A DNA stretch of 63,606 nt, the filler included, from Candidatus Sysuiplasma jiujiangense (GTDB lineage Archaea > Thermoplasmatota > Thermoplasmata > Sysuiplasmatales > Sysuiplasmataceae): the NCBI GenBank assembly GCA_019721075.1. It is 4 parts of 4 records of this genome, joined end to end, with 100 filler letters (N's around TTAATTAATTAA, not from the genome) between each part and the next. Parts side by side here need not be neighbours in the genome. Positions count along the whole stretch, not along the records: positions 1 to 18,677 come from JAHEAD010000024.1; 3 more parts are not named here. One strand, 5' to 3'. A model generated the notes under the pieces. The model searched no databases and was not told the origin of the DNA. It was given only the letters and a program-made list of their open reading frames with translations. Every line of letters begins with the position of its first letter. Positions within the stretch are counted from its first letter, which is position 1. The position numbers and the translations under genes are program-made. This document shows positions 1-50,951 of the stretch, piece by piece.

Positions 1-92
1 TTGGGAACCACTTCCATAATTAATATCCGAGATCTCAGGCCCTCGAGGGTGAGATCTCAGCTCTCCTGGGAAAAAATTCGGCGATTGATGAA

Positions 93-1240: not shown

Positions 1241-1418
1241 TCTTTCAACCTCCAGTATTTAAACCGACCAAAAAATCGACCTAGGATCGCCGCTTGAATC
1301 ATGTATATATAATAATAGGAGAGCAACCGCCGCCACATGCCATTTCCCATCATTTTCCCCTGATATCACGGCTTCCGCGTGGCTGGCATGTAAGTGGCAC
1401 ATGCCGTCCGGCATGCCA

Positions 1419-4048: not shown

Positions 4049-4884
4049 ATCCTGATGACCTCCCTTCTCTCCCTCTCCAGGAGGTATTTGCGGGCAGTGA
4101 AGAGCGCGATTATTATGGCGAACGCACTGGCAACGAAAGCCCTCGCGATTCCGTACTCGTACTGCGATAGGGTGTACTGGAGCGACGGCGGCTGCGGCCC
4201 ATAGTATTTCTGGATCGGTATTGTGGCAACAAGTTCGTTCGGGAACTTGTATACGGAATTCCCGAGGCCGATGGTCACAGTTGCCGTCGATCCGGAAATG
4301 TTGAACTGCACAATCTTCGAGCCATACACATTGCCGGAGAGGAGCTCCTGGCCGTTCAGGTATATGGAGTATGACTCGTTCTGGGTGCTCTGCATCGTCA
4401 CCGACCAGTCAGGATACATGAGTGCCCCTGCCGTGCCCGGTGCAACGGTCAGGAACTGGTCCTGTCCGGGGTACGAAGAGGATACGGACACGGACTGGAT
4501 AACCTTGTTTGACAGCGGCCCCGTGATAATATCGGCAAAGGTGTACGAAATCCCCTGGAAAACGAGTAACGCATTCGCAGGGGCACCCCCCGGCACGTTC
4601 CACACATACGTGAAATTGAATGCCCCCAGGGAATCTCCGGATTCCTTCACCGAGCCGTTGATCGAGAACGTGAAGGTACCGGATCCATACAGGTAGACAT
4701 GCCAGTCCGGATAAACCGAGACTCCGGAAGAATTGGCAGGCACATAGATGTATAAATCGGGATCCTGGTAAGTGGAATAAATGATGACATGTCCGGATGG
4801 AGTTGGAGATGCATCGACCACGGGAACGAATACAAGCCCAATAAGGGCTGTAAAAAGAAGAAGAGGCATTACGATTCGATTCAG
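4045..4884 (-). CDS. Secreted, C-terminally anchored protein with a duplicated beta domain; probable CTG start
   Basis: Signal peptide, YPDWHV/YPDWSV repeat, C-terminal TM; ortholog of 38922-39758. Confidence 0.8.
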   Translation of the reverse strand: MNRIVMPLLLFTALIGLVFVPVVDASPTPSGHVIIYSTYQDPDLYIYVPANSSGVSVYPDWHVYLYGSGTFTFSINGSVKESGDSLGAFNFTYVWNVPGGAPANALLVFQGISYTFADIITGPLSNKVIQSVSVSSSYPGQDQFLTVAPGTAGALMYPDWSVTMQSTQNESYSIYLNGQELLSGNVYGSKIVQFNISGSTATVTIGLGNSVYKFPNELVATIPIQKYYGPQPPSLQYTLSQYEYGIARAFVASAFAIIIALFTARKYLLERERREVIRI

Positions 4885-5177
4885 GGGTTTCTACCTCCTT
4901 CTTGAGGCTGTTTTGGCAGTATTCTAATTCGCTCGAGGAAGATCTTCCTCTTCAGGAATTCCTTTACCCTGATCCTCTTCTCCCTGATCCTCGAAGCGGT
5001 CAGGGACATGCCCATGATGATCCCGGAGGTTGCATTGGTCGCCGAACCGGAAGAGGGGAAGAAGAACTTGTGGAACATGCTCTCGATGGCTGGAAGATTC
5101 AGGCCAAGCCTTGTAAAGATCCACAGACCTATTATGAGGATGATGACTGCAATTGCCGCATCGGTGATCTTTCCCAT
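4881..5177 (-). CDS. Small membrane protein with basic C-terminus
   Basis: N-terminal TM; ortholog of 39755-40051. Confidence 0.8.
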   Translation of the reverse strand: MGKITDAAIAVIILIIGLWIFTRLGLNLPAIESMFHKFFFPSSGSATNATSGIIMGMSLTASRIREKRIRVKEFLKRKIFLERIRILPKQPQEGGRNP

Positions 5178-5181
5178 GATC

Positions 5182-6228
5182 TCACTCCATCCTTGGGGCT
5201 ATGATTCCCTTCACTTCGATGTGCTCACCATTTGGCCCTATCTTCCTTGTAGAAAACTCCACTGGATAGTCCCGCTTCATCCTGAGGGTCAGAACCGCCT
5301 CTTTTGGGTTCTGAAATTCATTCCTTCCCAGCATTGTCCGTATTGTTGATCGAAGATATTCTGTGGCGAAGGTTGCCTTCTCTGACGTAACCCATCCTGA
5401 TGGAACATCCCTGGGCTGCCTTGATGAAACTGCACTGACTGTTTCAATCAGCTCACGTTTCGGCTTGTATGAATCCGGATCATCAACAGACCTGTAGATT
5501 CCAACACTGGCCTTCTTTGTATCCCCTTCGAGCGAGAATCTCACTGTATCATCCTTTGTTTTCTGGAGGAAGTTCAGGAATGGCCTGAGCTGATCCCCTT
5601 CCAGCCTGACATCCCATGAATCTTGTTCGTAGTCCAGGGATGGCCAGCGAAGATTTGTTCCGCTTTTTGGCGGATTGTTCATCCATTCGGTTGAAAATTC
5701 CTTCCCATAGGATGTGGGATCAAGATATCCGTTTGGAAGATTGGTCTCCATGGTTTCCTGAATCATGGCAACATGTGACGGGTCCACGGATATGAAAGTC
5801 AGCGTGCCATTGTCAATGGTTATCTTCATGTTACCGGACGAAAAGAACATCTTCAGGTCCTCAGAATTCAGGTTCAGTTTTCCCCGCAGGTTGTCGATTC
5901 CGATGAGTTCCCGGACATCCACCTTATCGCCATAGGAAATGTTACGCTGTTTCGAGGGACCGGCTGCATTTTCCGTGGTTACTGATACGGGTTCAGGCGC
6001 TCTGGCCGGCTTCGCTGTCGCCGATGATTCTTGAAGCAGCATTCCTTCATACGGGGCGTAAAGGTCAAGCCTCTGGTTGGTCTTGATGAGCCTTGCCCTC
6101 TTGCCCTGCTTCCTCAGTTCCTGCACCTCATCGTATGCCAGGTTCCTTGGTACGCCGAACGCCTGCCTCTTCTTCACTGGATATATTTTCCTCTCCTTTC
6201 CCTTTCCTTTTGTTCTAAATTCTGTCAT
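5182..6228 (-). CDS. Divergent PCNA-like sliding clamp with tagged N-terminal extension
   Basis: SVDPSHVAMI, FATEYL, DYPVEF and terminal IIAPRME match PCNA signatures. Confidence 0.7.
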   Translation of the reverse strand: MTEFRTKGKGKERKIYPVKKRQAFGVPRNLAYDEVQELRKQGKRARLIKTNQRLDLYAPYEGMLLQESSATAKPARAPEPVSVTTENAAGPSKQRNISYGDKVDVRELIGIDNLRGKLNLNSEDLKMFFSSGNMKITIDNGTLTFISVDPSHVAMIQETMETNLPNGYLDPTSYGKEFSTEWMNNPPKSGTNLRWPSLDYEQDSWDVRLEGDQLRPFLNFLQKTKDDTVRFSLEGDTKKASVGIYRSVDDPDSYKPKRELIETVSAVSSRQPRDVPSGWVTSEKATFATEYLRSTIRTMLGRNEFQNPKEAVLTLRMKRDYPVEFSTRKIGPNGEHIEVKGIIAPRME

Positions 6229-6590
6229 TTCATTCTTCCTCCGATCCTCGTCTTTCCTCCTTCCTTGAATCCTCTTATATCGGCATAAAAAACAGAGGAG
6301 ACCTCTTTTCCGCTGCTGTAAAAGCTTGCTGCTTCCTCTCCTAGATATACTTGATTTATCCCAGACAAACGCATACCGTTGATGCTGAATTCTCTTGAAG
6401 GCCCCTTGAACTCAAACGGATCGTCATCGCTGTTCTCGAACCCGGATGATCTTATTATTTTGGCAACCTTTTGTGGTGCGAATTTCAATAAGTCCCTGGA
6501 ATTCACCCTTCGCTGAACCGAAAATTTTCTCTTCTCTATTGGCACTACCCTCTTCTTTCCGTTTTTCCTTACTGTCCTGAATGTTGTCAT
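6225..6590 (-). CDS. Tagged small basic protein
   Basis: MTTFRTVRKNGKKRVVPI; ortholog of 41130-41495. Confidence 0.8.
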   Translation of the reverse strand: MTTFRTVRKNGKKRVVPIEKRKFSVQRRVNSRDLLKFAPQKVAKIIRSSGFENSDDDPFEFKGPSREFSINGMRLSGINQVYLGEEAASFYSSGKEVSSVFYADIRGFKEGGKTRIGGRMK

Positions 6591-6914
6591 TTAATCCTCC
6601 TCAAACTTTCCCGTTGCCACATACGCAATGTCCGAATCGATCACTCTTTCCATCCTCTCGTTACCCTTATATTTTGATCTGAGCAGGGAGAGTTCCGCCA
6701 TTGTGTCAGCTTTGCCATATCTATCTACGGCTTTCCCCAGAGACCTCTTCCTGATATCATCCGCCAGGTCCACAGCATATCCTGCCAGGGACAGGCCATG
6801 GATGTGAATCTTCTTCAGGTCTGTCGTGCTGAGAACCTTGGATATCCCACTGAATCCGACACCTTTTCTCTTGGGATATGCTCTCCCGTCTTTCCTCCTT
6901 CCAAACTCAGTCAT
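6591..6914 (-). CDS. Tagged small basic helical protein (paralog of the next gene), putative DNA-binding
   Basis: LAGY...RKRSLGKAVDRYG...DIAYV; ortholog of 41498-41830. Confidence 0.8.
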   Translation of the reverse strand: MTEFGRRKDGRAYPKRKGVGFSGISKVLSTTDLKKIHIHGLSLAGYAVDLADDIRKRSLGKAVDRYGKADTMAELSLLRSKYKGNERMERVIDSDIAYVATGKFEED

Positions 6915-7251
6915 TTTTCTTCCCTCCCGATACATACCTTATGTCCTGCACTATCCTGGTCTTCAGCTCCGGCTTGTTGTAGTCCAGCCTGTACAACTCC
7001 CCGAGTTTCCGGAGCGTTTCCTTCTTCCCGTATTTTCCAATTGCCCTGTTCAATGCTGCATGCTTCGCGCCCTCCGTGCCGCTGATGTGATATCCCAATC
7101 CAGTGAGTGTCCCGGGATGCCTTATCCCCACTCCAGTCATGTCCTCGATCTGCTTCGGCGTCAGTTGCCTCTCCTTGCGGGTGATCCTGGTGCCCATTGG
7201 CACCACACTTTTCTTTCCGTTTTTCTTTATTGTCCTAAACTTTGTTCCCAT
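6907..7251 (-). CDS. Tagged small basic helical protein, putative DNA-binding
   Basis: MGTKFRTIKKNGKKSVVPM; GTLTGLGY...HAALNRAIGKYG...DIRYV; ortholog of 41823-42167. Confidence 0.8.
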   Translation of the reverse strand: MGTKFRTIKKNGKKSVVPMGTRITRKERQLTPKQIEDMTGVGIRHPGTLTGLGYHISGTEGAKHAALNRAIGKYGKKETLRKLGELYRLDYNKPELKTRIVQDIRYVSGGKKND

Positions 7252-7255
7252 TCTT

Positions 7256-10200
7256 TCACCTCTTCGTGTCCAGCTTGTATGTCTTGGTCTTGCCGCCGCT
7301 GGTAGCGACAACGTCTATGGGTGGCTTGCGCAGTTGTATGGCTGCTATCCCGATCCCTGCCAGTGTCAGCATGATAATGAGAAAGTTAGACAGGCCTCCG
7401 AAGAATGATATCAGTGTCCCAATTGTGAACGGGTTTGATGACAGGGAATTGGAGACAGAAAAGGGCATGACCATGGAATTGCTCGCAGAATTGTTGTTGA
7501 AAACAACCACCTTTATCCCGTACGTTCCCGAATCAAACTGTCCCTGGTTCATTGTGAGGTTGAAATATCCAATCTCCCCTGATGGCGTGTACGTGGAATT
7601 TATCGCTGTGGGGGAGTACATAGTGCTGCCGATGAAGGCTTCAACCGCCGTGATCCCATGCAGTGACTGCACCTTGATCGTGTAATAAGTCATAGGCCCA
7701 ACGGAGTGCTGCTCATAGGAAAGGACGATGCTGCTGTTCGTTCCCTGTGGTAGGACGCTGATGTATTGAGTTGAAGTCGAAGATGCCCCGAGACCATCGG
7801 TCACGGTGACTGATATGGTGTAGTTTCCCGCATGACTGAAGTAGAATAACACCGACTGCCCGGAATACGATGACCCGTTGATATCCCATGAATAGGAGAA
7901 GGTCGATGAGTCCGGCGCTGTGGCAGTGGCATTCAGGGAGAGCATGGTCCCAACGGGTATCTCCTTGGGGGGCGAGAATGAAATGGTTGGTTTGGCAGGT
8001 ATCATCCTCACTGTGAGGTCCTGAGTCCATGTTTTTCCGTTGTCGTAGGAGAATGTAGCGATCACAGGGTTGAACTCGTTGTATACAGGAAATTTGTAGC
8101 TTATGCTTAAGCCGGTGAGTGTCTGGCCATTTGGAAATGACCATGACATATTGTATGGGCCCTGGGCATCCCAATTAGGGGTGGCAGTGAAACGAAATAC
8201 CTGTGTGATGTTCAGGTTGGAAGAATAATTGAACTCAACAGGGGGAGGCAGGCTCTGTATGCTGATGTTCCTGGATCCGGTTGCTCCGTTTGCGCTAGAG
8301 ACGGTGAAATGAACAGAATAATTGCCCACAGGGAAAGAGTAAACGGGGTTCGGCAGCAGGGACGAGTGGTTTGGGGAGAAGGACCAGTTGTATGAGTATC
8401 CCGATCCACCCAGCACACTCGAACTGAACTGCACCGCCAGCGGTCCGAGACCGGATGTCTGGTTTGCGGCTATGGCGACGAAGAGGTGCACCTGGACTGT
8501 GAAATTCTGTGTGTCCACGTAACCGGATGAATCCGTTACCCTGGCCTCTATGGTATCGGGCCCGGATGACGAGAATACGTGCTGGATTGAAGTTCCGGAT
8601 TCTCTCTGCCCCGATGGGAAAATCCATGCTATGTTGTATGGGGCAATGCCGCCAGTCACATTGGCATATAATGGAAATTCCTCGGAAACTACAGCCTTTC
8701 CGGACCATGATACTGACACTGCCGGGTCACTGTATACTGTTACACTTACGGTAGATGATGCGTCCTTGCCGAATGAATCGGAAATGATGAGCTGAACCGT
8801 GTAATTGCCGGGAGTGGTGAATGAGTATGACACGGTTGCATTCTCATACATATGCCCGGCAATAAGCCATGTGTAACTGTAGGGCCCCACGCCTCCCGAT
8901 CCTGAAGACCGGAATGCATCCGTGACATTGGCATCAAGTAACGTCCTGGATGCTATTATGGATGCCACCGGGTATGATTCCACTGTGACGTCCAGGACAT
9001 GGGTTGAACTATCACCTTGGGAATCCTCCACAAGGAGCTTCACGGGATAAATTCCCGGCCTTGAGAATGAATAGTTAAGGGAGGATGCACTTCCGGAGAG
9101 GGAGCCGTTCACGTACCATGAGTATGAGTACCCCGGAGTGCCTCCTGTGATTACTGAGTTGAAGCTGTCAGTTACGTTGGGATCCACATTTGGGTACTGT
9201 GCAGATATCGTCACTGATGGAATGGAATTAATCCGGATCTCAATGGAAGAGGATGCCGAATTTCCAGCACCATCCGATACTTTCACTGTGACATTATAAT
9301 AACCTGACAGGCTGAAAGAATATATGAGATCCTGCTGGTACCCCACGTATCCGATGCCGGATATGGACCACGTGTAATTGTAGAATGGCGTCCCGCCCGA
9401 TATGGATGAATTGAAGTACACTGGAAATCCTATGTCCGTTGTAGTCCGGGATTCGGAGGGGGATACAACTGGCAGGGGTTTCACCGTGATATCCATGTAT
9501 GTGCTTGCCTTTGATCCCTGGCTGTCCACGATGAGCAGGGAAATATTATACGGGCCGGTTTTCGGGAAAGAATACTGGAAATACAGCCCGGATGAGGTGT
9601 TGACGCCATTCAGGTACCAGTAGTAGTTGTATGGGGCCGTACCATAGGACCCGAATCCTTCCCAGTACGTGGTCGTGGAAACATCCGTTTGGCTGGATCC
9701 CTCAATGAGTGCTGACGGTTTGGCAATCACCTTGATTGTGATAGACGATGCCGTTTGCTCGCCCAGGGAATCGGTTACCGTGAGGTTGACCGCGTATGAC
9801 CCGGGATCTGTGAATTGGAGGCGGAACTCCTGGGAGTAGTTTATGATCTTGCTGCCCAATGACCATGTATAATTGAAGGGTGAGCTCCCTCCGGTCACCT
9901 GGGCGAACAGCGTGTCATTTATCCCCTGATCCACGGTCGCATACTGGGCCTGTATGGACACCGTGGGGTCAGGGTTCACAACCTCGTTCACGGTATTTGA
10001 TGCCTGGTTTCCGCTGGCATCGGTGATTGTGAGCGATACAGTATATGTGCCGGAAGAGGTGAATGTGTAGTTCACATAGGAAGTGGTATACGCCTCACCG
10101 TTCACTGTCCATGCATACGTATAGCCTGGTGTCCCGCCGGATATGGATGCAGAGAAATTGACCCATATCCCGACGTCAGTAGGATTATGGACCACGTGAA

Positions 10201-12703
10201 TCACAACCGAAGGATCAGGGTTCACGGTCTCCGTAAGAGAGTAAGAAGCTGTATGGCCATCCCCGTCAGTGACGGTGACATTGACGTAGTATGATCCCGC
10301 CGAGGTGAAAGAGTAGGAGAATGCTGATGCGGTGGATTCCCGTACGCCATTTATGGTCCACGTATATGTGTCGGTGCCAGTCCCTCCAGAAACAACGGAA
10401 GAGAAGGATATGGAATTGCCAGCGTCAGTGGGGTTCTGCGAGCTGCTCACCGAAACAAGAGGGTTGTTGTTTATGGTAACGTTCACAGACGAGGAATACG
10501 TTTCGCCTAGGCTATCAGTTACTGTAATTTCGACAACATAGAACCCTGCGGAACTGAATGAGTAGGTAAAGTCTTGAGACGTGGACACCTGCGTTCCATT
10601 TATGATCCACGAATATGCATAGGGTGCCGTCCCTCCTGATGGGCTGGATGAAAAAGTTATATTATACCCGACATCCGCCGAACTGACTGAGGAGGATGCG
10701 GATACTATTGGATCGGAGTGCACGGTTTCGGATGTCGTGGCAGTTGCTGTTTCACCTGCCCCATCTGTTATGGACAGATCCTCGGTATATGATCCAGCTG
10801 CCAGGGTGGTGTTGAACGCAGGGGTCGTATAGGTGGACCCGGTACCTGTAAGGCTGTAAGTGTAGCCTGTGCCTGTCCCACCCATAACCGCTGTCAGGAA
10901 GAACTGCGGCACCGCCGCATCGGTGGTGCTCACGATGGGTGGGGTGCCGGAGACGGAGATTGATCCACCCGTAATATTCAGGGCGGACATTGATGCGCCG
11001 CCGCCCAGGTTCCCATTGTCAACTGCAAAGAAATACCATCCTGCCGAGAGTGTTTCCGTACCTGAATAAGCCGTAGCTCCTTGACTGACCCACGCACTGC
11101 TTCCGATGATGGATGTCCAGTCCACCCCGTTGTTGGATATGAACATTGCCCCGTTGTCGTCATATTCGCCATTAAACGTGTAAGTCCCGGCAGCGAAATA
11201 GAGCACCGTTACAGCCATGTACCCTTCATCGTATGCACCACCACTTGGCTCTGTATTCAGGACACCCAGTGATGAAGGGTATGCCACGTTGGGCCGACCA
11301 AGGAAGGACTGCCCGTTGTAATATGGATTTCCGTAGTCAAACCCGAATCCACCGTCATTGAACGTGCCCGTCCAGGTTGACACGTTGTTCGGGAAGGAGT
11401 TTGGCATCGACAGCGGGTAGGAACTGATGTCGGAATACGGAACAGCCCCCTCTGTCGGCCCTGAGGTGTACGAATATACGTAGAATACGCCCGGAGTCAT
11501 CGCATTGATGATGGCTGCCTGCGGATCGGGGTAAACGATCTGAGTCAGGGATGGGCTTTGAGCGGTATAACCATTAGTATCCGTGATGACCACATATACT
11601 GAATTTGATCCACCGGATGTGAAGTCCTCTGTCCACTGGCTGCTTGACGTGGACTGCACCGAATTCCCATTGAGATAGAAGTTGTAGTTGCTGTAGGAGC
11701 CGGAACCGCCAGAACCAGAAGCCGTGAACACAACATTCTGCCCCACATCTGACGGATTCAAATTTGAGGTTATCGAGACTCCGAGAGTGGGGTCAATTGT
11801 TTCCGCGAATGTCGGTGACGTGCCGGTCAAGCCAGAGGATGTGGCCACCACGTAGAAGTCATATGGACTTGAGGAAGAGGAAGATTCTGATGTTGTGTAT
11901 GTAGACCCCGTGGCACCCGAAATTGCCGTTCCTGATCCTGATGCACCGGAGTACCACTGATAAGTGTATGACCCTGAGCCGCCGGTTGCCGATGCGGTGA
12001 GGGTGAACTGCTGGCCGACATCGGCTGGATTTTGGCTTGAACTGACGGAAACGACAACGGGGTTCTCGACAACCTGGGTGTATGAATTGGATGCGGAACC
12101 AGCGTCTGTGGAAATCGACAGTGAAATGGTATATGACCCTGCAACTGAGTCCGTCCATGTCGGGTTGGATGCAGTTGTGCTTGAGAGAGATCCTGCGGAT
12201 GCGCTCCATGAGTATGCCCCTCCGTTCACATCTTCGAAGTTCGCATTGGACGATAAGTCGACTGTCCCGGATGTCACAACCGGGTTCGGGGAGCCCGATA
12301 CCGACGTGAGCGATGGGGCGACAGGGGACCCTGAATAATCGCTGGGATATGTTCCGGCGGTTCCCGAGGTGCCTCCGGAGACAGAATATCCCGGGACGCC
12401 ACCCAATGACCAGCTTATGGTCGGCGACGTCGATGGGTTCCTCAGTGTCACTTGGTATGTGATAGTACCACCGGGTGCAGCGCTTCCATAGCCGCCTATG
12501 GACCATGACGAGATCTCGGTAGACAGGCCTGATTCATCCCATGTCCATGTGTATGTAGTAGTCGTCGTGTCCGGGTTGTATGCAGCGATCTGCTTTTCCG
12601 CCGGGGCAAGCGTGATCAGGAGCATGAGGGATACAAATATCAGTGCAATGGGAACGACGTACCTTTTCCTGCCGTTCAGGGCACGGGCAATGATGGATTT
12701 CAT
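7256..12703 (-). CDS. Giant PKD/Ig-repeat surface protein (1815 aa) with a PA14-like insert
   Basis: N-terminal signal, many GGTxPYxYxW...GxYxVxLxVxD repeats, C-terminal TM and short tail. Confidence 0.9.
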   Translation of the reverse strand: MKSIIARALNGRKRYVVPIALIFVSLMLLITLAPAEKQIAAYNPDTTTTTYTWTWDESGLSTEISSWSIGGYGSAAPGGTITYQVTLRNPSTSPTISWSLGGVPGYSVSGGTSGTAGTYPSDYSGSPVAPSLTSVSGSPNPVVTSGTVDLSSNANFEDVNGGAYSWSASAGSLSSTTASNPTWTDSVAGSYTISLSISTDAGSASNSYTQVVENPVVVSVSSSQNPADVGQQFTLTASATGGSGSYTYQWYSGASGSGTAISGATGSTYTTSESSSSSSPYDFYVVATSSGLTGTSPTFAETIDPTLGVSITSNLNPSDVGQNVVFTASGSGGSGSYSNYNFYLNGNSVQSTSSSQWTEDFTSGGSNSVYVVITDTNGYTAQSPSLTQIVYPDPQAAIINAMTPGVFYVYSYTSGPTEGAVPYSDISSYPLSMPNSFPNNVSTWTGTFNDGGFGFDYGNPYYNGQSFLGRPNVAYPSSLGVLNTEPSGGAYDEGYMAVTVLYFAAGTYTFNGEYDDNGAMFISNNGVDWTSIIGSSAWVSQGATAYSGTETLSAGWYFFAVDNGNLGGGASMSALNITGGSISVSGTPPIVSTTDAAVPQFFLTAVMGGTGTGYTYSLTGTGSTYTTPAFNTTLAAGSYTEDLSITDGAGETATATTSETVHSDPIVSASSSVSSADVGYNITFSSSPSGGTAPYAYSWIINGTQVSTSQDFTYSFSSAGFYVVEITVTDSLGETYSSSVNVTINNNPLVSVSSSQNPTDAGNSISFSSVVSGGTGTDTYTWTINGVRESTASAFSYSFTSAGSYYVNVTVTDGDGHTASYSLTETVNPDPSVVIHVVHNPTDVGIWVNFSASISGGTPGYTYAWTVNGEAYTTSYVNYTFTSSGTYTVSLTITDASGNQASNTVNEVVNPDPTVSIQAQYATVDQGINDTLFAQVTGGSSPFNYTWSLGSKIINYSQEFRLQFTDPGSYAVNLTVTDSLGEQTASSITIKVIAKPSALIEGSSQTDVSTTTYWEGFGSYGTAPYNYYWYLNGVNTSSGLYFQYSFPKTGPYNISLLIVDSQGSKASTYMDITVKPLPVVSPSESRTTTDIGFPVYFNSSISGGTPFYNYTWSISGIGYVGYQQDLIYSFSLSGYYNVTVKVSDGAGNSASSSIEIRINSIPSVTISAQYPNVDPNVTDSFNSVITGGTPGYSYSWYVNGSLSGSASSLNYSFSRPGIYPVKLLVEDSQGDSSTHVLDVTVESYPVASIIASRTLLDANVTDAFRSSGSGGVGPYSYTWLIAGHMYENATVSYSFTTPGNYTVQLIISDSFGKDASSTVSVTVYSDPAVSVSWSGKAVVSEEFPLYANVTGGIAPYNIAWIFPSGQRESGTSIQHVFSSSGPDTIEARVTDSSGYVDTQNFTVQVHLFVAIAANQTSGLGPLAVQFSSSVLGGSGYSYNWSFSPNHSSLLPNPVYSFPVGNYSVHFTVSSANGATGSRNISIQSLPPPVEFNYSSNLNITQVFRFTATPNWDAQGPYNMSWSFPNGQTLTGLSISYKFPVYNEFNPVIATFSYDNGKTWTQDLTVRMIPAKPTISFSPPKEIPVGTMLSLNATATAPDSSTFSYSWDINGSSYSGQSVLFYFSHAGNYTISVTVTDGLGASSTSTQYISVLPQGTNSSIVLSYEQHSVGPMTYYTIKVQSLHGITAVEAFIGSTMYSPTAINSTYTPSGEIGYFNLTMNQGQFDSGTYGIKVVVFNNNSASNSMVMPFSVSNSLSSNPFTIGTLISFFGGLSNFLIIMLTLAGIGIAAIQLRKPPIDVVATSGGKTKTYKLDTKR

Positions 12704-13014
12704 GCCACCCCCCCCACCACGGGCAGGTCATGCACAATCATGCCCATTATCAGTACGATGGAAATGAATAAGGCGAGCAGGATGACAAATATAGGCAACG
12801 CAAACGGTCCCATGGATGCGGCCACCGACACGAATGATGCCATGACTCCGGAAATAACCCCAAAAATAACGCTGAGCATTAAGTTAAACAGTTCAGCCAG
12901 GTAGTACAGGGACATTGCAAAAAAGTACAGGATGATCTGTATGACGTTGTTAATGGCATCCAGCGGGTTCAGCCATGAGATCAGGGAAGGCGGGCTCACC
13001 CCATAATATGACAT
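12700..13014 (-). CDS. Small hydrophobic protein (coat/pilin-like paralog 3)
   Basis: Hydrophobic helices; ortholog of 48628-48942. Confidence 0.8.
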   Translation of the reverse strand: MSYYGVSPPSLISWLNPLDAINNVIQIILYFFAMSLYYLAELFNLMLSVIFGVISGVMASFVSVAASMGPFALPIFVILLALFISIVLIMGMIVHDLPVVGGVA

Positions 13015-13292
13015 TATTCACTCACCATATCCTTTATCGGGACCGTGAAGGAGAATACCAGGAACAATCCTACCAATGTCATGCCTCCCGATGCCACAAT
13101 GATTGTTGGGGCCAGGAATCCGTAATTCCCCTGCCATGCATTGAATACCGAGACAAAATCCCCTGTCACTGAATGAAATAGTGGCAGGATCAGGGTATTT
13201 TCCAGATCCGAGAGGAGGTTCTGGAAGAACGCATATAGAACCTTCAGGAACCCCCAGAGGGGGGACGACTGAATGGCAGAGGCTATGGACAT
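13014..13292 (-). CDS. Small hydrophobic protein (coat/pilin-like paralog 2)
   Basis: YGFLAP...PIKDMV; ortholog of 48942-49220. Confidence 0.8.
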   Translation of the reverse strand: MSIASAIQSSPLWGFLKVLYAFFQNLLSDLENTLILPLFHSVTGDFVSVFNAWQGNYGFLAPTIIVASGGMTLVGLFLVFSFTVPIKDMVSE

Positions 13293-13299
13293 TCATGCC

Positions 13300-13683
13300 T
13301 CACACATCGTCTTCCATGCTCACGAGATCCCTCATTGGCCCCACAAGGGCAAGTATCAGGAAACCAGCAAGCAAAGCGATCCCAATGCCGAAGACAAACA
13401 TCAGGGGGCCGTAGACTCCATACCCGGCTAACGAAAAACCGAATCCCTGGAACATGATATTGATGGAGTTGGAGAACCCGGAGAATATGCCTCCGAACAT
13501 TGTTCCCAGTCCGTTGACTATTACCTGCAGGAAGCCCATCAGGAGATTCCATATGCTGTTGAAAACGGTACTGCCCAGCGAGGATGAGGACGTGGCCATG
13601 GGAATGAAGGTCAGGGAGAAAATAGAGATCTTCATCCTCGCCTTCCTGATTTTCTTCACATGGAATATGAGCCGGTTTAACAT
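13300..13683 (-). CDS. Small hydrophobic protein with basic leader (coat/pilin-like paralog 1)
   Basis: Start MLNRL after a GGGAGGG SD; YGVYGP...PMRDLV; ortholog of 49232-49609. Confidence 0.8.
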   Translation of the reverse strand: MLNRLIFHVKKIRKARMKISIFSLTFIPMATSSSSLGSTVFNSIWNLLMGFLQVIVNGLGTMFGGIFSGFSNSINIMFQGFGFSLAGYGVYGPLMFVFGIGIALLAGFLILALVGPMRDLVSMEDDV

Positions 13684-13684
13684 C

Positions 13685-14914
13685 TCACTTCCCTCCCTTC
13701 TTCGCCGAATTCTGCCTGTCGAACACGCCGATGTCGTACCACGGAGCCACGAGTATGGCAGCAACGAATGTGAATATGGTGCCTATGAGGTACCCGGTCT
13801 GCTCTGCACTGTAAGACCCGATGATGGTCGTTAGGCCTGTGTTGCCATACACGTGGAAGCTGATTGATATGCTCGTAACGTTGCTCTGAACGAGGATCAT
13901 GATGTTCTCTGACTGATTTCCCGTCAGGGATGATGATGAAATCGAAAAGGAGACTGACGTTAGGTTTTTCAGTGACTGGTATGCGAACGGCTCGAAACTT
14001 GATACGTTGAAACCCGTACCCAGTGAAACGTTTGCGGGATGCGAATCAGTAGAAGATATAGATATCTTGGACACTGCGAAGTTGTTCAGCTCCGCAACGG
14101 TGAGGTTGGTACGGATCCATACCTGGTTTGAGTATGAGGTGACGTTGTTCACTGTACTGGATGGGAAATCAAAGGTCGCCGTTCCGTTGACCTGGCCAAA
14201 GGGTATCGCCCCAGAGGATCCGTAAACGTACGAGGTGATGGACTCGGATTGGAGCACCGAGGAATTGTCGGTTCCCGCTACAAGGGCATGGCCGATCCCC
14301 GCAGAGAGGAAAATCATGAGGAAGACGGATATGAGGGCGATAAACAGCCCTAAGAACTTTCGGGCCGCCTTCCCTGATCCGGATTCCTTAAAATTGAGGG
14401 ATTTTACCTTTGGTCCTTTCTGTCCCATATATCCCTTCCTGTCAGACCAGGCTGCATCCCATATGACAACGAGACCGAAAACCAGTATGGATACCAGGTA
14501 CAGTACGGCTGCCTCGTTGCCGTTGAACGCGGGCACGATGATGTACTGGGCAAAGCCAAATTCGTATCCCAGGAAACCGCCGATGAATCCTCCAAGGACA
14601 AAGCCAGCGAATGCCCGCCAGATTAGATCCAGGATGCTCTTCCCGGGTGGCGTCAGGGTTTCGATAACGGCCCAGACGACAGCCCCAAATATGATCGCCG
14701 GGGCAATTATCCCATCATTGAATACAACAACATGACCGACTATGGTATACGTGGGTCTTGCCAGCAGGCCAACAAAAAGCATGAGGGTCGCAAGCAGCCC
14801 TATGACCAGTTCGCCGATTCTCCATTTGCCCACGTGGGTCGGGATGTTCTTTTTCGTCTTTCCAGAACTCTTTGCCGGGTTGCCGGCTTTTGAACCTTTA
14901 TTTTTCTTTGCCAT
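13685..14914 (-). CDS. Polytopic membrane protein with extracellular beta domain and C-terminal TM
   Basis: About 5 N-terminal TMs, N-x-S/T-rich domain; ortholog of 49611-50840. Confidence 0.85.
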   Translation of the reverse strand: MAKKNKGSKAGNPAKSSGKTKKNIPTHVGKWRIGELVIGLLATLMLFVGLLARPTYTIVGHVVVFNDGIIAPAIIFGAVVWAVIETLTPPGKSILDLIWRAFAGFVLGGFIGGFLGYEFGFAQYIIVPAFNGNEAAVLYLVSILVFGLVVIWDAAWSDRKGYMGQKGPKVKSLNFKESGSGKAARKFLGLFIALISVFLMIFLSAGIGHALVAGTDNSSVLQSESITSYVYGSSGAIPFGQVNGTATFDFPSSTVNNVTSYSNQVWIRTNLTVAELNNFAVSKISISSTDSHPANVSLGTGFNVSSFEPFAYQSLKNLTSVSFSISSSSLTGNQSENIMILVQSNVTSISISFHVYGNTGLTTIIGSYSAEQTGYLIGTIFTFVAAILVAPWYDIGVFDRQNSAKKGGK

Positions 14915-14986
14915 CTCTACTTCTCCCCCACGGAAGAAGCGGAGCCTGAACTCACGGAAATTAGCATCCGCCTCTCCGTAAGTTCA
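14915..14986 (-). promoter_or_regulatory. Structured RNA leader (12-bp hairpin, pseudoknot, alternative SD-sequestering hairpin)
   Basis: Stem 14947-14958/14975-14986 with one G-U pair on the minus strand; same architecture at 50841-50917. Confidence 0.6.
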
Positions 14987-15283
14987 CTTACCCTTACGAC
15001 GTCCTTCATTAAATAGAACACTCTTCTTGTATCGAGATCCCCTCGAAGCAGTTCGCAGGTGAATCACATCAACCCGACCCATTTCCCCAAGACCCCGTAA
15101 GATTTTCTGGACACGGTAGATGGATGACCTACTGGAATCACTCAAGTATCCATCTCGGACCAGGATCGTGGTAATTCTTTTACAAGAGAATGACAAATTC
15201 GGATACCTGTCAAGAACAGAGAACACTCTCTGTTCCTCTTCAGACAGCAGCGACCTCCTTTCCTCTGGCGACTGTAACTGCAT
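14984..15283 (-). CDS. Putative winged-helix DNA-binding protein
   Basis: Basic 99 aa with LSEEEQRVF...RVQKILRGL...GRV pattern; coupled to the upstream gene. Confidence 0.5.
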   Translation of the reverse strand: MQLQSPEERRSLLSEEEQRVFSVLDRYPNLSFSCKRITTILVRDGYLSDSSRSSIYRVQKILRGLGEMGRVDVIHLRTASRGSRYKKSVLFNEGRRKGK

Positions 15284-15822
15284 TATTTCGATACTTTATC
15301 ACCATCCTTGCTTTCAGTATCTGGAGCTGTATCCGGACCCCACGTCAGCTCTATTTCACAGGATCCAAGGAGCAGCTTCTCGTTCTTCTTGCAGCTCCTG
15401 ACCAGGCTCCTCTTTCCCGCCGGACCAACGGAATACAGGACAAACTGGTACTTGTTCCGGCTGTACGACAGGAGATATTTCTCTCTCTCGGGGTTAACGT
15501 TTTGGGTTAACGGATTGACGGATTCATGCGTTAACCTTTTAGATGGCCTATTGAAAATGAATTCTGATGGCTTTCCCGGAATACGGAGCTGCTGGAAGTG
15601 TTCGCACTTCTCCACAGGCCTGAATGATCTCTTCGGGTCCATCTGGTTATGTAAGATGCAGACAGGGCAGATTCCCATCCAGTATCCATCCTCGTAGGAA
15701 CCGGAGACCTGGGACGTCCTTCCCCGGTTAACGGGTTTACGGTTAACAGGGTTAACGTTAACCTTGTGAGCTCTTCTCTGTCTCATGTACTCTGCCATCT
15801 TTGCTGGGTCCTTGTAGGGCAT
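15283..15822 (-). CDS. Hypothetical protein with MPYKDP...EYMR start, VN repeats and CxxC/CxH
   Basis: ORF track; stop/start coupling. Confidence 0.7.
   Translation of the reverse strand: MPYKDPAKMAEYMRQRRAHKVNVNPVNRKPVNRGRTSQVSGSYEDGYWMGICPVCILHNQMDPKRSFRPVEKCEHFQQLRIPGKPSEFIFNRPSKRLTHESVNPLTQNVNPEREKYLLSYSRNKYQFVLYSVGPAGKRSLVRSCKKNEKLLLGSCEIELTWGPDTAPDTESKDGDKVSK
15493..15762. repeat. Cluster of seven GTTAAC palindromes
   Basis: GTTAAC at 15493, 15506, 15530, 15727, 15742, 15751 and 15757; GTTTAC variant at 15735. Confidence 0.8.
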
Positions 15823-15956
15823 CAGGTCTTCCTCCCGAAATTATGATACTTCCTGGCAGCTGCTATGTCTGACTGGATTACCTCAAAGAAGATCTCCTCT
15901 TCACCAGGTGTGAGGTCCAGCTGGACCTTGAGGTTTCCGTAAGTTAGGGTCTTCAT
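15822..15956 (-). CDS. Small hypothetical protein (44 aa, MKTLTYGNLKVQ...)
   Basis: Hand-translated; fills the gap with ATGA and TGATG overlaps. Confidence 0.6.
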   Translation of the reverse strand: MKTLTYGNLKVQLDLTPGEEEIFFEVIQSDIAAARKYHNFGRKT

Positions 15957-16723
15957 TTCAGGACCTCCAGACTGACATCAGGAGCTTCCAGGTATAGCGG
16001 ACGCATCTTCCTCTTAACTTCTTCCTTAATTCGCTCATCGGTTATCTTTGGAAAATATGCCCTCAGTTCCGAAACAAGGGTTTGGTCAGAAATTATGCCC
16101 GCTTCCATGTCGGCAAAGAACTTCCTGTCAACCGATATGTTCAGTGAATCAAACGAAGCAGGCGATACGTAAGCTTTCAAATGCTCCGGGTCGGGTACAA
16201 CCCTGCCGTTCCTTATGGTGAGCTTCACTTTTGCAAGGGACCGCAACACATCCTGGTCGTTGCCTTCATAGATTACACTGCTGCCGAGGAACATGAAATT
16301 ATACTTTTTCCTGTCCTTGAGCTCCCTGCAGAGGTCAGAAATTTCACCTTCAGGCATCGGAACCGGAGTAATTCTTCTTATCCTGTTCGATTCTATCAAG
16401 GTATGGAGATACCACGCTCCGCAATCTTCCTCCACCCTGATGTCCACCTGCAGGCTCTTCTTCCTTGCAACGTTCTCCCTCAGGTACTTTGCCCTGGATT
16501 GCAGCGGTGCAAGCTCCTCAATGAGCAATCTTATTTTCTGGTCAATGTCCTCCAGTTCTTTCTCTTCCGGATCCTTTCCAAGGGCAAGGTCAATGTCCCT
16601 CTCAACCATTTTACCGATATCAAGTCCCAGTTCCCTTGCCCGTGCAAGCTTGCTTGCCCTCATGCTAATAGATACCGGGACTTTTCTGTCTTCCACCGGT
16701 GGTCTTCCCATCACAGAATTCAT
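15953..16723 (-). CDS. RHH/CopG-like regulator with coiled coil
   Basis: MGRPP...KVPVSISM...ARELGLDIGKMV. Confidence 0.55.
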   Translation of the reverse strand: MNSVMGRPPVEDRKVPVSISMRASKLARARELGLDIGKMVERDIDLALGKDPEEKELEDIDQKIRLLIEELAPLQSRAKYLRENVARKKSLQVDIRVEEDCGAWYLHTLIESNRIRRITPVPMPEGEISDLCRELKDRKKYNFMFLGSSVIYEGNDQDVLRSLAKVKLTIRNGRVVPDPEHLKAYVSPASFDSLNISVDRKFFADMEAGIISDQTLVSELRAYFPKITDERIKEEVKRKMRPLYLEAPDVSLEVLK

Positions 16724-16970
16724 GGTTTGACCTCCGTTAAGGGTAGATTTCCAGTAGAAAATAAAGTAAGAAGTGAGTAAGTAAGTAAGTTCAAGAAAGA
16801 GTTTAATAATTTAATTATTAAAGTCAATTGTAAAAAATAAGATAATAGCGGTTTTCCGAGAACCACCATTTTTACTTTCCTTATTAAGAAAAGTCCTACA
16901 TGGCTAAAATACACGTTCTCCGAGACATTGTTAAACTCTGCACTTTTCTTAATAAGATTAATAAGAAAAC
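16724..16970. promoter_or_regulatory. AT-rich intergenic region with a 15-bp inverted repeat; candidate origin or operator
   Basis: CTTATTAAGAAAAGT 16880-16894 / ACTTTTCTTAATAAG 16942-16956; GTAA tandem repeats near 16763-16790. Confidence 0.5.
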
Positions 16971-17381
16971 TCATGGCGACACCCCCAGGTCATTCATGAA
17001 CTCCAGCACGAGGGCGCGAACTCTTATGCGCAGCTTCTCTTCCTCCTGGGTCAATGTGTTTTCCCCAGGATCCACGATCCCCTCAACATCTTTCCTTTCA
17101 TACAGCGCAAGGACCAGCACCTTCCGGAACCGGTTGTCGAGAAAGTCTTTCACCAAGTTGCCTCTCACTTCCATCTTTCTTTTCATCAGAGCGTATTCCT
17201 GATTGAGGCCAGAATCTATCAGCCTCTCCAGTTCTTTCTGTTCTTCCCTGGCAGCTTCGCTAAGGAGGAGGTAAAAATCAGAAGACGGAAGCTTCTGGAG
17301 TCTTTTTCCTTTTGTTTCCCTGTTGACCAGGGCCGGAAGATCTGAAAGTATCTTTTCCGTGCGGTTCGCTGAGTGAATCAT
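16971..17381 (-). CDS. GINS A-domain-like protein
   Basis: LQKLPSSDFY...RFRKVLVLA...LTQEEEKL resembles the archaeal GINS helical domain. Confidence 0.6.
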   Translation of the reverse strand: MIHSANRTEKILSDLPALVNRETKGKRLQKLPSSDFYLLLSEAAREEQKELERLIDSGLNQEYALMKRKMEVRGNLVKDFLDNRFRKVLVLALYERKDVEGIVDPGENTLTQEEEKLRIRVRALVLEFMNDLGVSP

Positions 17382-17725
17382 CTTCTCCCCCTCCTGTAAG
17401 GCCTCTGCTCTGGCCATCTTCCCTCGCGAAAACGCTTCTGCTTCCTTACAAAGTTATCCCTCAGAACTCTTTGCTCTGGATCCTTTGAGGCCGGCATGGT
17501 GTACTTGATCCTTAGGGGGTTTCGCCCAACAACAGTACAATCCTTCTCATGCCTTTCCAGGAAGACCCTGAATTGATCCTCAGCTTCCAGGAGATCGTAT
17601 CCTATTATGGTCACTATTTCCCGGCAATTCATCAGGTCAGGCGTGGAAGTCTCGATCCCGGATCTGGACTCCATGAAGCGATCAAGTACGTTCTTGATCT
17701 TCTCCTGGTCACAAGCTGGGATCAT
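17378..17725 (-). CDS. Hypothetical protein
   Basis: GGAGGTG SD before MIPAC; ATGA overlaps at both ends. Confidence 0.6.
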   Translation of the reverse strand: MIPACDQEKIKNVLDRFMESRSGIETSTPDLMNCREIVTIIGYDLLEAEDQFRVFLERHEKDCTVVGRNPLRIKYTMPASKDPEQRVLRDNFVRKQKRFREGRWPEQRPYRRGRR

Positions 17726-17871
17726 TCGAGCACCTCCAGGAGACCTCCAAGGCTTTTCGGGAGCTCTCTCAGGGGCCACCTCATGGCGTATCTCTTTTCT
17801 AGCTCCTCAATGACTGTCGGCGGGACAAGGTTGCCCTGGATTATGCTGCTCTTTGGAATCGTTTCTAGCAT
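17722..17871 (-). CDS. Small hypothetical protein (49 aa, MLETIPKSS...)
   Basis: Hand-translated; GAGGTG SD; ATGA overlap. Confidence 0.45.
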   Translation of the reverse strand: MLETIPKSSIIQGNLVPPTVIEELEKRYAMRWPLRELPKSLGGLLEVLE

Positions 17872-18162
17872 GACACAAAACACCTCGCACCCATGTCGTC
17901 GAATCCCTCTCCCCGCGCTTTAAACTATTTGGAGAATATAGTTTTAATATGTATAACGGAATACAATCTCTTCCCATATTGACTCAAGCTTTAGTTTTGG
18001 ATAATCTGCTTTCCACCTGAAGGAAGAGTTTGCGACATATCCAACATCTCTTAGCGCTCCAAATTCTCTTTTGTCATAAAATCAGATTTTCGCTCAATAT
18101 ACTCTTCGTAAAGAGATTCATGAAAAGGGTAATTTCAATAGGAAGATTGCATTTTGATAATT

Positions 18163-18677
18163 ATGGAGCCATCCGCCACGGATTCTGACAAGATGAGGTT
18201 TGCTCTTCTCATAGATGCTGAAAATGCACGGCCAACTCTCATAGACTCGGTGATCGATGAGGTCGGCAAATACGGGTACATTATCATAAAGCGGATATAT
18301 GGCGATTTTACCATGCCAAATATGAATCCCTGGAAGAAAGTGGTAACAGATCTGGCAATACAGCCTGTACTTCAGCTGCACAATGTTTCCGGCAAGAATT
18401 CATCCGATTTTGCTATGACAATCGATGCCATGGACATCCTTTACAGCAAGGAAATAGACGCCTTCTGTCTGGTTTCAAGCGATAGCGATTTCACCAGACT
18501 CGTGACCAGGTTGAGAGAAAATGGCAAATTTGTCATGGGGGTAGGGAAAAAGGGAACATCGTCATCACTGGTGAACGCGTGCAACGTGTTCGTCTTTACG
18601 GAGATTCTCGAGAGCACGGAGAAAGAAGCCAAGTCCAAGATCAGGACACCCAAGAGAGAATCACTGAAGAGCGACGA
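18163..18677 (+). CDS. NYN (LabA/DUF88) domain protein, truncated at the contig end
   Basis: LIDAEN, GKNSSD, DAMD, LVSSDSDF motifs. Confidence 0.9.
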
Positions 18678-18777
18678 NNNNNNNNNNNNNNNNNNNNNNN
18701 NNNNNNNNNNNNNNNNNNNNNTTAATTAATTAANNNNNNNNNNNNNNNNNNNNNNNNNNNNNNNNNNNNNNNNNNNN
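18678..18777. other. Artificial contig spacer
   Basis: N-run containing TTAATTAATTAA. Confidence 0.99.
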
Positions 18778-40051: not shown

Positions 40052-40056
40052 TGCTC

Positions 40057-41495: not shown

Positions 41496-41497
41496 GA

Positions 41498-49609: not shown

Positions 49610-49610
49610 C

Positions 49611-50840
49611 TCACTTCCCTCCCTTCGCAGCCTGGTTCTTCCTGTCGAATACACCCAGGTCATACCATGGAGCCACCAGTATGGCCGAAACAAAGGTGAA
49701 TATGGTGCCGATCAGGTATCCCGTCTGCTCTGCTGAATATGATCCAAAGATTGTGGTAAGGCCGTTGTTCCCGTATGCATGGAAGCTGATCGATATGCTG
49801 GTGACGTTGCTCTGCACCAGCACCATGATGTTTGCGGACTGGTTTCCCGTCAGCGAGGATGATGCTATGGGGAATGAGGCTGACGTGAGGTTCTTCAGGC
49901 TCTGGTACGCAAATGGCTCGAAACTTGACACGTTGTAGCCTGTACCCAGGGAGACATTGGCGGCATGGACATCAGTGGAATCGATCACGAGCTTGGACAC
50001 GGCGAAGTTGTTCATTTCCGCCACTGTGAGATTGGTCCTGATCCACACCTCCCCCTGGTATGTGGTCACATTGTTCACGGTGCTGGACGGAAAGTCAAAG
50101 GTGGCTGTTCCGTTGACCTGGCCGAAGGGTATCGCACCTGACGACCCGTAAACATATGATGTGATGGCCTCGGACTGCAGAACCGGAGAATTATCGCTGC
50201 CTGCGACCAGGGCATGCCCTATTCCAGCAGAGAGAAAAATCATCAGGAATACCGAGATGAGGGCAATGAACAGGCCTATGAACTTCCTTGCAGCCTTCCC
50301 CGATCCCGATTCCTTGAAATTCAGCACCCTGGTGTTCTTGGCCTTCTGCCCCATGTATCCCTTCCTGTCGGACCATGCGGCATCCCATATGACCACAAGG
50401 CCGAATACCAGGATGGATACCAGGTAAAGGATTGCAGCGGAATTGCCTGCATATGCAGGCACAATGATGTACTGGGCAAACCCGAACTCATAGCCCAGGA
50501 AACCGCCTATGAACCCACCCACGACGAAACCAGCAAAAGCACGCCACACAAGGTCTATGATGCCTTTACCAGGGGGCGTCAGTGTTTCGATGATAGCCCA
50601 CACAACCGCCCCGAATATAATCGCAGGCGCAATGATGCCGTCATTGAAAACCACCACATGATTCAGTATGGTGTATGTCGGCTTCGCCAGGAGGCCAACA
50701 AACAGCAGCATTGTCGCCAAAAGCCCAATAACAAGCTCCCCTATGTGCCACTTCCCAACGTGCGTTGGGATATTCCTCTTCGTCTTTCCAGAACCCTTTG
50801 CCGGATTACCGGCGCCTGAACCTTTATTTTTCTTAGCCAT
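49611..50840 (-). CDS. Polytopic membrane protein
   Basis: Ortholog of 13685-14914; start MAKKNK. Confidence 0.85.
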   Translation of the reverse strand: MAKKNKGSGAGNPAKGSGKTKRNIPTHVGKWHIGELVIGLLATMLLFVGLLAKPTYTILNHVVVFNDGIIAPAIIFGAVVWAIIETLTPPGKGIIDLVWRAFAGFVVGGFIGGFLGYEFGFAQYIIVPAYAGNSAAILYLVSILVFGLVVIWDAAWSDRKGYMGQKAKNTRVLNFKESGSGKAARKFIGLFIALISVFLMIFLSAGIGHALVAGSDNSPVLQSEAITSYVYGSSGAIPFGQVNGTATFDFPSSTVNNVTTYQGEVWIRTNLTVAEMNNFAVSKLVIDSTDVHAANVSLGTGYNVSSFEPFAYQSLKNLTSASFPIASSSLTGNQSANIMVLVQSNVTSISISFHAYGNNGLTTIFGSYSAEQTGYLIGTIFTFVSAILVAPWYDLGVFDRKNQAAKGGK

Positions 50841-50951
50841 TTCCGCTTCCTCCGCTCCGGAGAGAGGGGAAGCCACTTGCTTTTCGGAGGTCTATGGCTT
50901 CCGCTCCTCCGAAAAGCTTTGCAATTATTGAATGCTAGGAAGTTTATATAT
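50841..50951 (-). promoter_or_regulatory. TATA promoter plus structured 5' leader
   Basis: ATATATAAA at 50951-50943; perfect 12-bp stem 50879-50890/50906-50917; loop complementary to 50868-50875. Confidence 0.65.

Follow-up and report, generated by a model that had tools for sequence, protein, structure and literature searches.

Translational riboswitch platforms and other leaders that mask the Shine-Dalgarno (SD) sequence operate with an anti-SD strand and an anti-anti-SD strand. Attenuators of the trp type are built from four segments that pair as 1:2, 2:3 and 3:4. Kinetically gated leaders include the 5' UTR of the maturation-protein gene of phage MS2 and the metastable 5' hairpins of the hok mRNA. 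Stabilizing stem-loops at the very 5' end are known from E. coli ompA and from the 5' UTRs of S-layer gene mRNAs. To our knowledge, very few cis-regulatory RNAs have been described from archaea, and switches that mask the SD belong essentially to bacteria.

The DNA studied here (the window, 63,606 nucleotides) consists of joined contigs of one Thermoplasmata metagenome-assembled genome (MAG) with runs of N between them; places 1-18677 are contig C17. Two elements on its minus strand, A and B, are homologous 5' leaders, each located directly 5' of a gene for a paralogous 409-aa membrane protein (Table 1). They had been predicted from the sequence to be an undescribed archaeal translational switch or a protein-responsive leader, and this reading is partly supported by the present analysis. 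The explanation that we hold to be rather probable is an undescribed bistable 5' leader that would act in cis in the mRNA of a conserved membrane- or surface-protein operon in Thermoplasmata. The leader belongs to no known family: it has no Rfam match, no aptamer-like core and a pairing scheme of its own. The window has 0 matches to Rfam 15 at gathering score, and five loci that carry the leader (27,419 bases in total) have none at E≤1. The listings and abstracts of the literature on archaeal and Thermoplasma structured leaders, SD sequestration and bistable leaders do not describe the motif.

Table 1. Positions of the leaders, their segments, the TATA boxes and the first genes in the window
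Feature	Positions	Strand	Remarks
Leader A, whole	14915-14986	-	72 nt
TATA box, leader A	15008..15015	-	Starts 101 nt before ATG, 29 nt before first P1 base
Leader A, segment X (arm)	14973..14986	-	P1 5' arm, 14 nt; predicted mRNA 5' end
Leader A, P1 loop	14961..14972	-	With conserved motif
Leader A, segment W	14947..14960	-	P1 3' arm
Leader A, segment Y	14927..14946	-	Pyrimidine-rich; pairs with SD region (P2) or X (alternative helix)
Leader A, segment Z	14915..14927	-	P2 3' arm with SD GGGAG, then 8 nt to start codon
Leader B, whole	50841-50917	-	77 nt
TATA box, leader B	50943..50950	-	Starts 110 nt before ATG, 33 nt before P1
Leader B, segment X	50894..50917	-	P1 5' arm (50906-50917) and 5' part of loop; partners W or Y
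Leader B, segment W	50879..50890	-	P1 3' arm
Leader B, segment Y	50854..50876	-	P2 5' arm region, 3' strand of alternative helix
Leader B, segment Z	50841..50853	-	SD GGAGG (50849-50853), P2 3' arm, spacer
First gene, cassette A	13685..14914	-	409-aa polytopic membrane protein, sequon-rich C-terminal domain
First gene, cassette B	49611..50840	-	409-aa paralogue, 87% identical to cassette A gene

The two genes open a repeated cassette, in which the polytopic membrane protein of about 400 aa comes first. Its other products are three small hydrophobic proteins, a giant protein with PKD repeats (1815 or 2151 aa) and additional uncharacterized proteins. Contig C27 of this genome carries a third copy, which the contig end truncates within P1. 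Other Thermoplasmata show the same gene order; some of them have a split first gene with swapped halves. Pfam and PHROGs searches with the cassette proteins recognized PKD and Ig domains in the giant proteins and otherwise gave only weak matches; a protein atlas search with the cassette proteins gave nothing usable, and a tRNA scan found no tRNA genes in the window. A viral or plasmid origin was considered and rejected: no relative of the 409-aa protein was found in IMG/VR, GenBank phages or PLSDB plasmids, and two DNA-pattern scans of IMG/VR produced chance matches only (best model score 14.2 bits). Since viral evidence is lacking, the "structural operon" of the original prediction is better named a surface or membrane-protein cassette of unknown function. 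According to PMC6336744, no virus of a mesophilic acidophilic archaeon has yet been isolated.

All pairings that had been claimed for A and B are present on the minus strand. In A, helix P1 has 12 bp and can be extended to 14 bp, and helix P2 spans the GGGAG SD; in B, P1 has 12 perfect bp and P2 spans GGAGG. The predicted fold of A (72 nt) has -38.5 kcal/mol and a z of -6.58, that of B (77 nt) -39.2 kcal/mol and a z of -3.94; 0/200 shuffles were as good in either case. DNA-level mismatches in A had been said to become G-U pairs on the mRNA strand only. This was verified: five of the 29 pairs in A are G-U, and its sense strand folds at -38.5 kcal/mol against -24.3 kcal/mol for the antisense strand. 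The sense fold is the better one in 8/8 leaders, by 13-15 kcal/mol in A and in two homologues, L019 and L030.

The TATA box that had been noticed upstream of P1 in B is present there, and also in A and in the homologues. It begins 29-33 nt before P1 in the seven leaders whose minimum-energy fold (MFE) shows P1. From this position and the usual archaeal spacing between TATA box and start, with the TATA box as the guide, we infer that transcription begins within about 3 nt of P1. In leader A the TATA box falls within the 3' end of an upstream ORF of 99 aa. Scans for promoters and terminators at A detected neither an intrinsic-terminator-like nor a sigma-70-like site.

This genome makes use of SD-led initiation, with GGAG or GAGG at -16 to -5 in 224 of 1468 crude ORFs. 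The distance from SD to AUG in the leaders is 7-8 nt and fits the genome's own GGAGG peak at -12. Opening of the SD and initiation region is predicted to cost 10.1-17.4 kcal/mol in the leaders, compared with a median of 10.4 (sd 3.6) in a crude reference set of 60 GGAGG-preceded ORFs of the same genome. The idea of an exceptionally buried SD was therefore rejected. Because the opening cost is ordinary for this genome, the case rests on conservation and not on unusual stability.

Relatives of the 409-aa protein were collected from a protein database (41 matches), genome contigs (10 loci) and metagenome contigs (five loci). Class-wide genome searches found them in 10 of 401 genomes. The source names of related proteins point to Thermoplasmataceae and Thermoplasmatales. 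The arrangement of TATA box, P1 and P2 is common to six of the relative loci (L019, L009, L010, L011, L014 and L021). Eight other relative loci are without the leader; they are probably leaderless, as their ATG is preceded by a TATA-like box at a distance of about 25 nt.

A covariance model was built from six leaders, A being left out. It recovers A at 24.6 bits (E 0.0016-0.0026) and L019 at 20.4 bits, and finds a new copy, L030. Since a model built without A finds A at this score, A and B are diverged homologues and not independent inventions. Within the Thermoplasmata family in which the gene is commonest, 12 of 101 genomes match the model at E≤0.01, the downstream gene having been checked for part of the matches. 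In divergent leader lineages, the downstream gene is either a split first gene (L176, L184) or one that encodes a different membrane or secreted protein (L178, L181, L182). Three of the matches (L185, L180, L179) were judged to be pseudogene copies; either P1 pairing or the loop motif has decayed in them, which provides a natural control. A model search of the leaders' own genome returned only A, B and a 14-bit match on contig C23, which was rejected as sitting in an apparent membrane-protein coding region. A scan of the same genome for stems around the loop motif gave nothing else convincing. The single extra match in 150 other genomes of the class (G144, 29.2 bits) is regarded as chance because it lies antisense inside a 655-aa ORF.

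Covariation among homologous leaders had been named as the check on the original prediction. It was found, and it is strong in P1. The leader sequences available are related, few and from a narrow clade. In an eight-leader alignment fitted to P1 and P2, 96.7% of the P1 cells are paired and 7/12 pairs have changed on both sides; for the whole-structure measures of P1 and P2, 0/500 shuffles were as good. A 12-leader alignment was fitted to a rival helix (see below) and not to P1. Here 96.7% of the P1 cells are again paired, compared with 23-48% when the strands are slid, 6/11 pairs have changed on both sides (17 cells), and 0/500 shuffles were as good on all five measures. RNAalifold predicts P1 and P2 unaided. 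P2 is only moderately supported by the same 12 leaders: 79.5% of its cells are paired, 4/13 pairs have changed on both sides (a count reached by 191/500 shuffles), and its covariation score is 0.240 versus 0.159 (0/500 shuffles). It is weaker partly because its register shifts between lineages. The proposal of one structure with diverged sequence in A and B is upheld by this covariation, as a structure at the RNA level that makes sense on the mRNA strand only.

In each of the eight leaders first examined, the P1 loop has its complement in the strand immediately 3' of P1. The duplexes of loop and downstream strand have -13 to -18 kcal/mol, and shuffled loops match them at a fraction of 0.002-0.074 across the eight leaders; for A and B, the fraction of shuffled loops pairing as well is 0.025 and 0.008, respectively. 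In the eight-leader alignment 86.3% of the cells of this pairing can pair, and 1/13 pairs has changed on both sides, which 264/500 shuffles also reach. The loop pairing had been read as a pseudoknot. Its complementarity stands; a simultaneous H-type pseudoknot does not. The likeness to an H-type pseudoknot is a hairpin loop complementary to sequence just 3' of it, but the linker has 0-3 nt across a stem of 12-14 bp, and 0-1 nt precede the loop strand. Given the groove-spanning geometry usual for H-type pseudoknots, such a linker means that loop pairing and P1 cannot coexist.

When the SD region is blocked in constrained folding, 7/8 leaders refold into one long helix. For its description the leader is divided, from 5' to 3', into segments X (P1 5' arm and 5' half of the loop), W (P1 3' arm), Y (pyrimidine-rich) and Z (SD region). 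The long helix, X:Y, is referred to as Alt; it has 18-25 pairs across 12 leaders, and the loop complementarity is its core. It takes 9-12 positions of the 11-14-nt P1 arm in 11/12 leaders (4/9 in L019), together with 9-14 loop bases and 7-16 of the 11-17 positions on the 5' side of P2 in the 12 leaders. In leader A its 5' strand is made of the P1 loop and the inner arm (14963-14982). By occupying the P1 arm, the loop and the 5' side of P2, Alt excludes both P1 and P2 and frees the SD. The alternative pairings over the SD of the original prediction were found as well, and the two-state idea behind them is strengthened by a conserved Alt that is close in energy to P1+P2.

All energies of Alt are nearest-neighbour predictions, not measurements. 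The difference Alt minus (P1+P2) ranges from -3.9 to +6.1 kcal/mol in nine of the 13 putatively intact leaders scored, and is 9-13 kcal/mol in A, L009 and L176. The single values, in kcal/mol, are -3.9 (L181), -1.8 (L178), 2.0 (L182), 2.6 (L010), 3.3 (L030), 4.4 (B), 5.4 (L011), 5.4 (L014), 5.8 (L019), 6.1 (L184), 9.2 (L009), 11.3 (A) and 12.8 (L176). P1+P2 is the predicted minimum-energy fold in 10/12 intact leaders checked; L181 and L178 favour Alt. Controls were made by permuting the order of the P1 pairs and shuffling the loop, with P1 and P2 kept (200 per leader). Alt is 8-15 kcal/mol worse in these controls, and the observed value was reached in 0-0.5% of them in 11/12 leaders and in 12.5% in L019. 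The difference between the two folds is predicted to shrink from 25 to 65°C, with a change of sign only in L178 and L182 (2/11 leaders). The idea of an RNA thermometer of the ROSE or fourU type was set aside, the sign of the difference showing no consistent change with temperature.

Every position of X is complementary to both W and Y, across lineages with differing arms. Among the X:W:Y triplets are A:U:U, G:C:C and C:G:G at one position and G:C:C versus A:U:U at another; indels leave strict column homology in this position table uncertain. In the eight-sequence alignment, which was fitted to P1+P2, 85-86% of the Alt cells pair and 74/500 shuffles reach the count of changed pairs (264/500 for the core alone), so that on this alignment covariation of Alt beyond conservation is not significant. 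In the 12-sequence alignment, 85.8% of the cells pair, compared with 40-63% after sliding of the partner strand. Covariation scores 0.225 versus 0.170±0.015 (0/500 shuffles as high), and six cells have changed on both sides (1/500 shuffles), in four pairs (35/500 shuffles). This alignment was made to the Alt model and therefore leans towards Alt; L181 and L182 are outside it because they fall below the alignment threshold. Taken over both alignments, covariation of Alt is modest. What the analysis shows, then, are conserved helices that exclude one another, together with the energies predicted for them.

From these folds we infer a model of actual switching, its direction and its trigger. Conformer I would consist of X:W, that is P1 as a hairpin at the very 5' end, and Y:Z, that is P2; the SD would be buried and initiation at the first gene disfavoured. 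Conformer II would be the X:Y helix of 18-25 bp, with W expelled, SD and AUG single-stranded and initiation allowed. P1 would form first, during transcription. The newly made Y could then nucleate on the exposed P1 loop, which is the contact read earlier as a pseudoknot, and displace W. Once Z has been made, the RNA could relax to P1+P2 unless a ribosome or another factor already holds the SD. As an alternative to this relaxation route, a factor bound to a conserved element at the apex of P1 might block the invasion by Y.

A wider claim is possible and is made here tentatively, as one that may well prove too strong: that with this leader a class of natural, bistable translational riboregulators is described in Archaea for the first time. 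The leader would act as a strand-displacement switch of the toehold type, in which the apical loop of P1 nucleates invasion by the anti-SD strand and translation of the surface operon is gated either kinetically, by ribosome capture of the nascent SD, or by a factor that binds the apical element.

The proposed bistable leader shares features with each of the described systems. As in translational riboswitch platforms, a pyrimidine strand (Y) has two possible partners, the SD and a purine strand further upstream, and mutually exclusive helices set the access to the SD. It differs from them in lacking a recognizable ligand-binding aptamer, in its archaeal host and in having no Rfam family; moreover, its competitor X is locked in a 5'-terminal hairpin, which results in the scheme 1:2, 1:3, 3:4. 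With trp-type attenuators it has four segments and competing pairings in common, but the scheme is not theirs, and there is neither a conserved leader peptide nor a terminator. An AUG in the P1 loop of A does open a 16-codon uORF that ends 2 nt before the main AUG; a leader-peptide reading was rejected because B and the L010 group are without such an AUG.

The early and the final fold differ, as in the MS2 and hok leaders, and translation would need a transient or alternative fold, which is predicted here. Alt is favoured in 7/8 leaders before Z exists, and the full-length minimum is P1+P2 in 10/12 intact leaders, both by prediction. Unlike MS2 and hok, with which there is no relation in sequence or family, the leader has two states that are close in energy in many copies. 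Like the stem-loops of ompA and of S-layer gene mRNAs, P1 is a stable hairpin a few nt from the predicted 5' end of an envelope-protein mRNA. In contrast to these, both its loop and an alternative partner are conserved, and a plain stabilizer needs neither.

The motif at hand is compact, at about 80 nt; it has the support of covariation, offers two conserved folds predicted to exclude each other, and precedes a multi-copy, fast-diverging surface or membrane cassette of acid-mine Thermoplasmata. If the switch is real, it would offer a tractable model for archaeal post-transcriptional control, a natural strand-displacement design and a handle on the regulation of variable envelope proteins in wall-less acidophiles. 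Read conservatively, it still constitutes a new family of structured RNA, one that could enter Rfam.

A first alternative is a static leader, in which P1 is a 5'-terminal protective stem-loop that stabilizes an abundant mRNA for surface proteins, P2 tunes down initiation and no switching takes place. The X:Y complementarity could then be a by-product of the resemblance of W and Y, both pyrimidine-rich and pairing with purine-rich strands that are themselves alike, for example after an ancient duplication of a hairpin. Such a leader agrees with the start of P1 within about 3 nt of the TATA-predicted transcription start, with covariation being strongest in P1, with P1+P2 as the predicted minimum in all intact leaders checked except L181 and L178, with the weak covariation of Alt on the alignment not fitted to it, and with the ordinary opening cost of the SD. 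In leader A itself, Alt is 11 kcal/mol worse than P1+P2, which speaks against two states. We nevertheless consider a static leader rather unlikely. Compared with controls in which P1 and P2 are retained, Alt gains about 8-15 kcal/mol in 11/12 leaders, it is kept across lineages with different arms, and it is the predicted minimum in L181 and L178; a plain stabilizer hairpin would also leave the conserved sequence of the P1 loop unexplained.

This loop is the starting point of the next alternative. In most lineages the apex of P1 is a GC-GNRA-GC element with the tetraloop GGAA, GUAA or GAAA. The A lineage has GGAU, with the natural variant GGAC, in place of GNRA. The motif of the loop is kept in sequence while the stem varies. 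B, L019 and L178 have a GCGGA-type motif similar to the apical element a second time, immediately ahead of the AUG. The leader might accordingly be protein-responsive, and possibly autoregulatory: a protein on the apical GC-GNRA-GC element, perhaps also on the GCGGA-type motif near the SD, would lock the closed fold, in the manner of ribosomal-protein or CsrA-type leaders. The conserved loop on a variable stem, the persistence of GNRA in the most divergent lineages and the second, similar motif before the AUG all point in this direction. Against it stand the absence of an identified candidate protein, the GGAU or GGAC of the A lineage, and the fact that loop conservation is equally explained by pairing with Y, and we regard this reading as unlikely. 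It would be compatible with the bistable leader and would supply its trigger.

A small-molecule riboswitch, with P1 and an internal loop as the aptamer, is very improbable. Although the mutually exclusive helices resemble an expression platform and the gene association is narrow and consistent, the unpaired positions outside GC-GNRA-GC are poorly conserved and variable in length, leaving no conserved core that resembles an aptamer. A single simple hairpin would have to serve as the aptamer, the controlled genes are for surface proteins without a metabolic link, and there is no Rfam match. An inverted repeat acting at the DNA level, as the operator of a dimeric transcription factor or as a recombination site, would suit the place at the predicted transcription start, the conserved inner core CGGAG...CUCCG and the copy on contig C27 that ends inside the repeat, but is scarcely credible with arms that change by compensatory substitutions and are not constant, with many G-U pairs that make the opposite strand or DNA palindrome poorer by up to 14.6 kcal/mol, and with three copies in one genome that have different outer arms.

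In most locus pairs the leader is the best-conserved segment. L010 and L021 are 60% identical upstream, 99% in the leader and 75-78% in the coding region; the corresponding values for L011 and L014 are 58%, 94% and 60-73%. The coding identity of a further locus, L172, is unreliable, as this locus ends 22 nt after the ATG. A and B are the exception, with 59% identity in the leader and 74-88% in coding DNA. Metagenome contigs aligned to A carry a natural variant at 14966, an unpaired base of the loop, and include further paralogue leaders whose P2 arms differ in a compensated manner.

A cassette of approximately 12 kb occurs in the genome as three paralogous copies, each opening with a membrane-protein gene (409 aa in the two window copies); the identity among these first genes is 87-88%. 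Alongside the membrane protein, every copy encodes three small hydrophobic proteins, one giant protein with PKD repeats (1815 or 2151 aa) and other uncharacterised proteins. No relatives were found among viruses or plasmids. The runs of N in the window are junctions between several MAG contigs placed end to end, with position 18677 as the last of contig C17. Leaders A (14915-14986) and B (50841-50917), the homologous 5' leaders of two of the first genes, are therefore located on separate contigs, and the A-B spacing within the window is meaningless.

Features in and around the cassettes and leader A, in window coordinates
Feature	Position	Strand	Remark
Cassette copies, ~12 kb	3200-14914 and 38074-50840	minus	a further copy on own-genome contig C27
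Conserved start of coding region	14853-14914	minus	first gene of cassette A
uORF, 16 codons	14919-14969	minus	starts at AUG in P1 loop of A
99-aa ORF	14984-15283	minus	weak PHROG match, E 0.0012
N runs	18678-18777, 36654-36753, 52581-52680		window sequence

Between the paralogues, the first ~60 coding nt are more conserved than the leader (for A and B, 88% vs. 59%). In many metagenome contigs the match is confined to these ~60 nt and the sequence diverges exactly at the ATG, where recombination or gene conversion may have its limit, or where assembly may have broken off between paralogues.

The uORF of leader A, which neither B nor the leaders of the L010-type group possess, ends 2 nt upstream of the main AUG. 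Upstream of leader A lies a 99-aa ORF, the sequence of which looks like that of a small winged-helix regulator. The TATA box of the leader sits within the final codons of this ORF, and its TGA stop falls in the first bases of P1, the hairpin at the predicted 5' end of the leader, so that terminating ribosomes would open P1 in any transcript that reads through. Neither the homologous locus L019 nor B conserves this overlap of ORF, TATA box and P1.

Some genomes have a split first gene, its halves in swapped order (loci L187 on G302:C48 and L189 on G436:C26). A gene of ~235 aa (C-terminal half) directly follows the leader, then one of ~155 aa (N-terminal half) and the remaining cassette genes. 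Loci L185, L180 and L179 are first-gene pseudogenes with ORFs cut to 1-34 codons; in their leaders the P1 pairing is broken or the loop motif altered, and these decayed leaders work as a natural negative control.

The leader is missing in many first-gene homologues (L012, L020, L022, L023, L015-L018, L031-L033, L038, L039, L045 and L046). These leader-free homologues have N-termini reading MATTK or MVTTK and a TATA-like box ~25 nt upstream of the ATG, a position that suggests that they are probably leaderless. The class thus contains the operon both with the leader and in a probably leaderless version, sometimes within one genome (G302).
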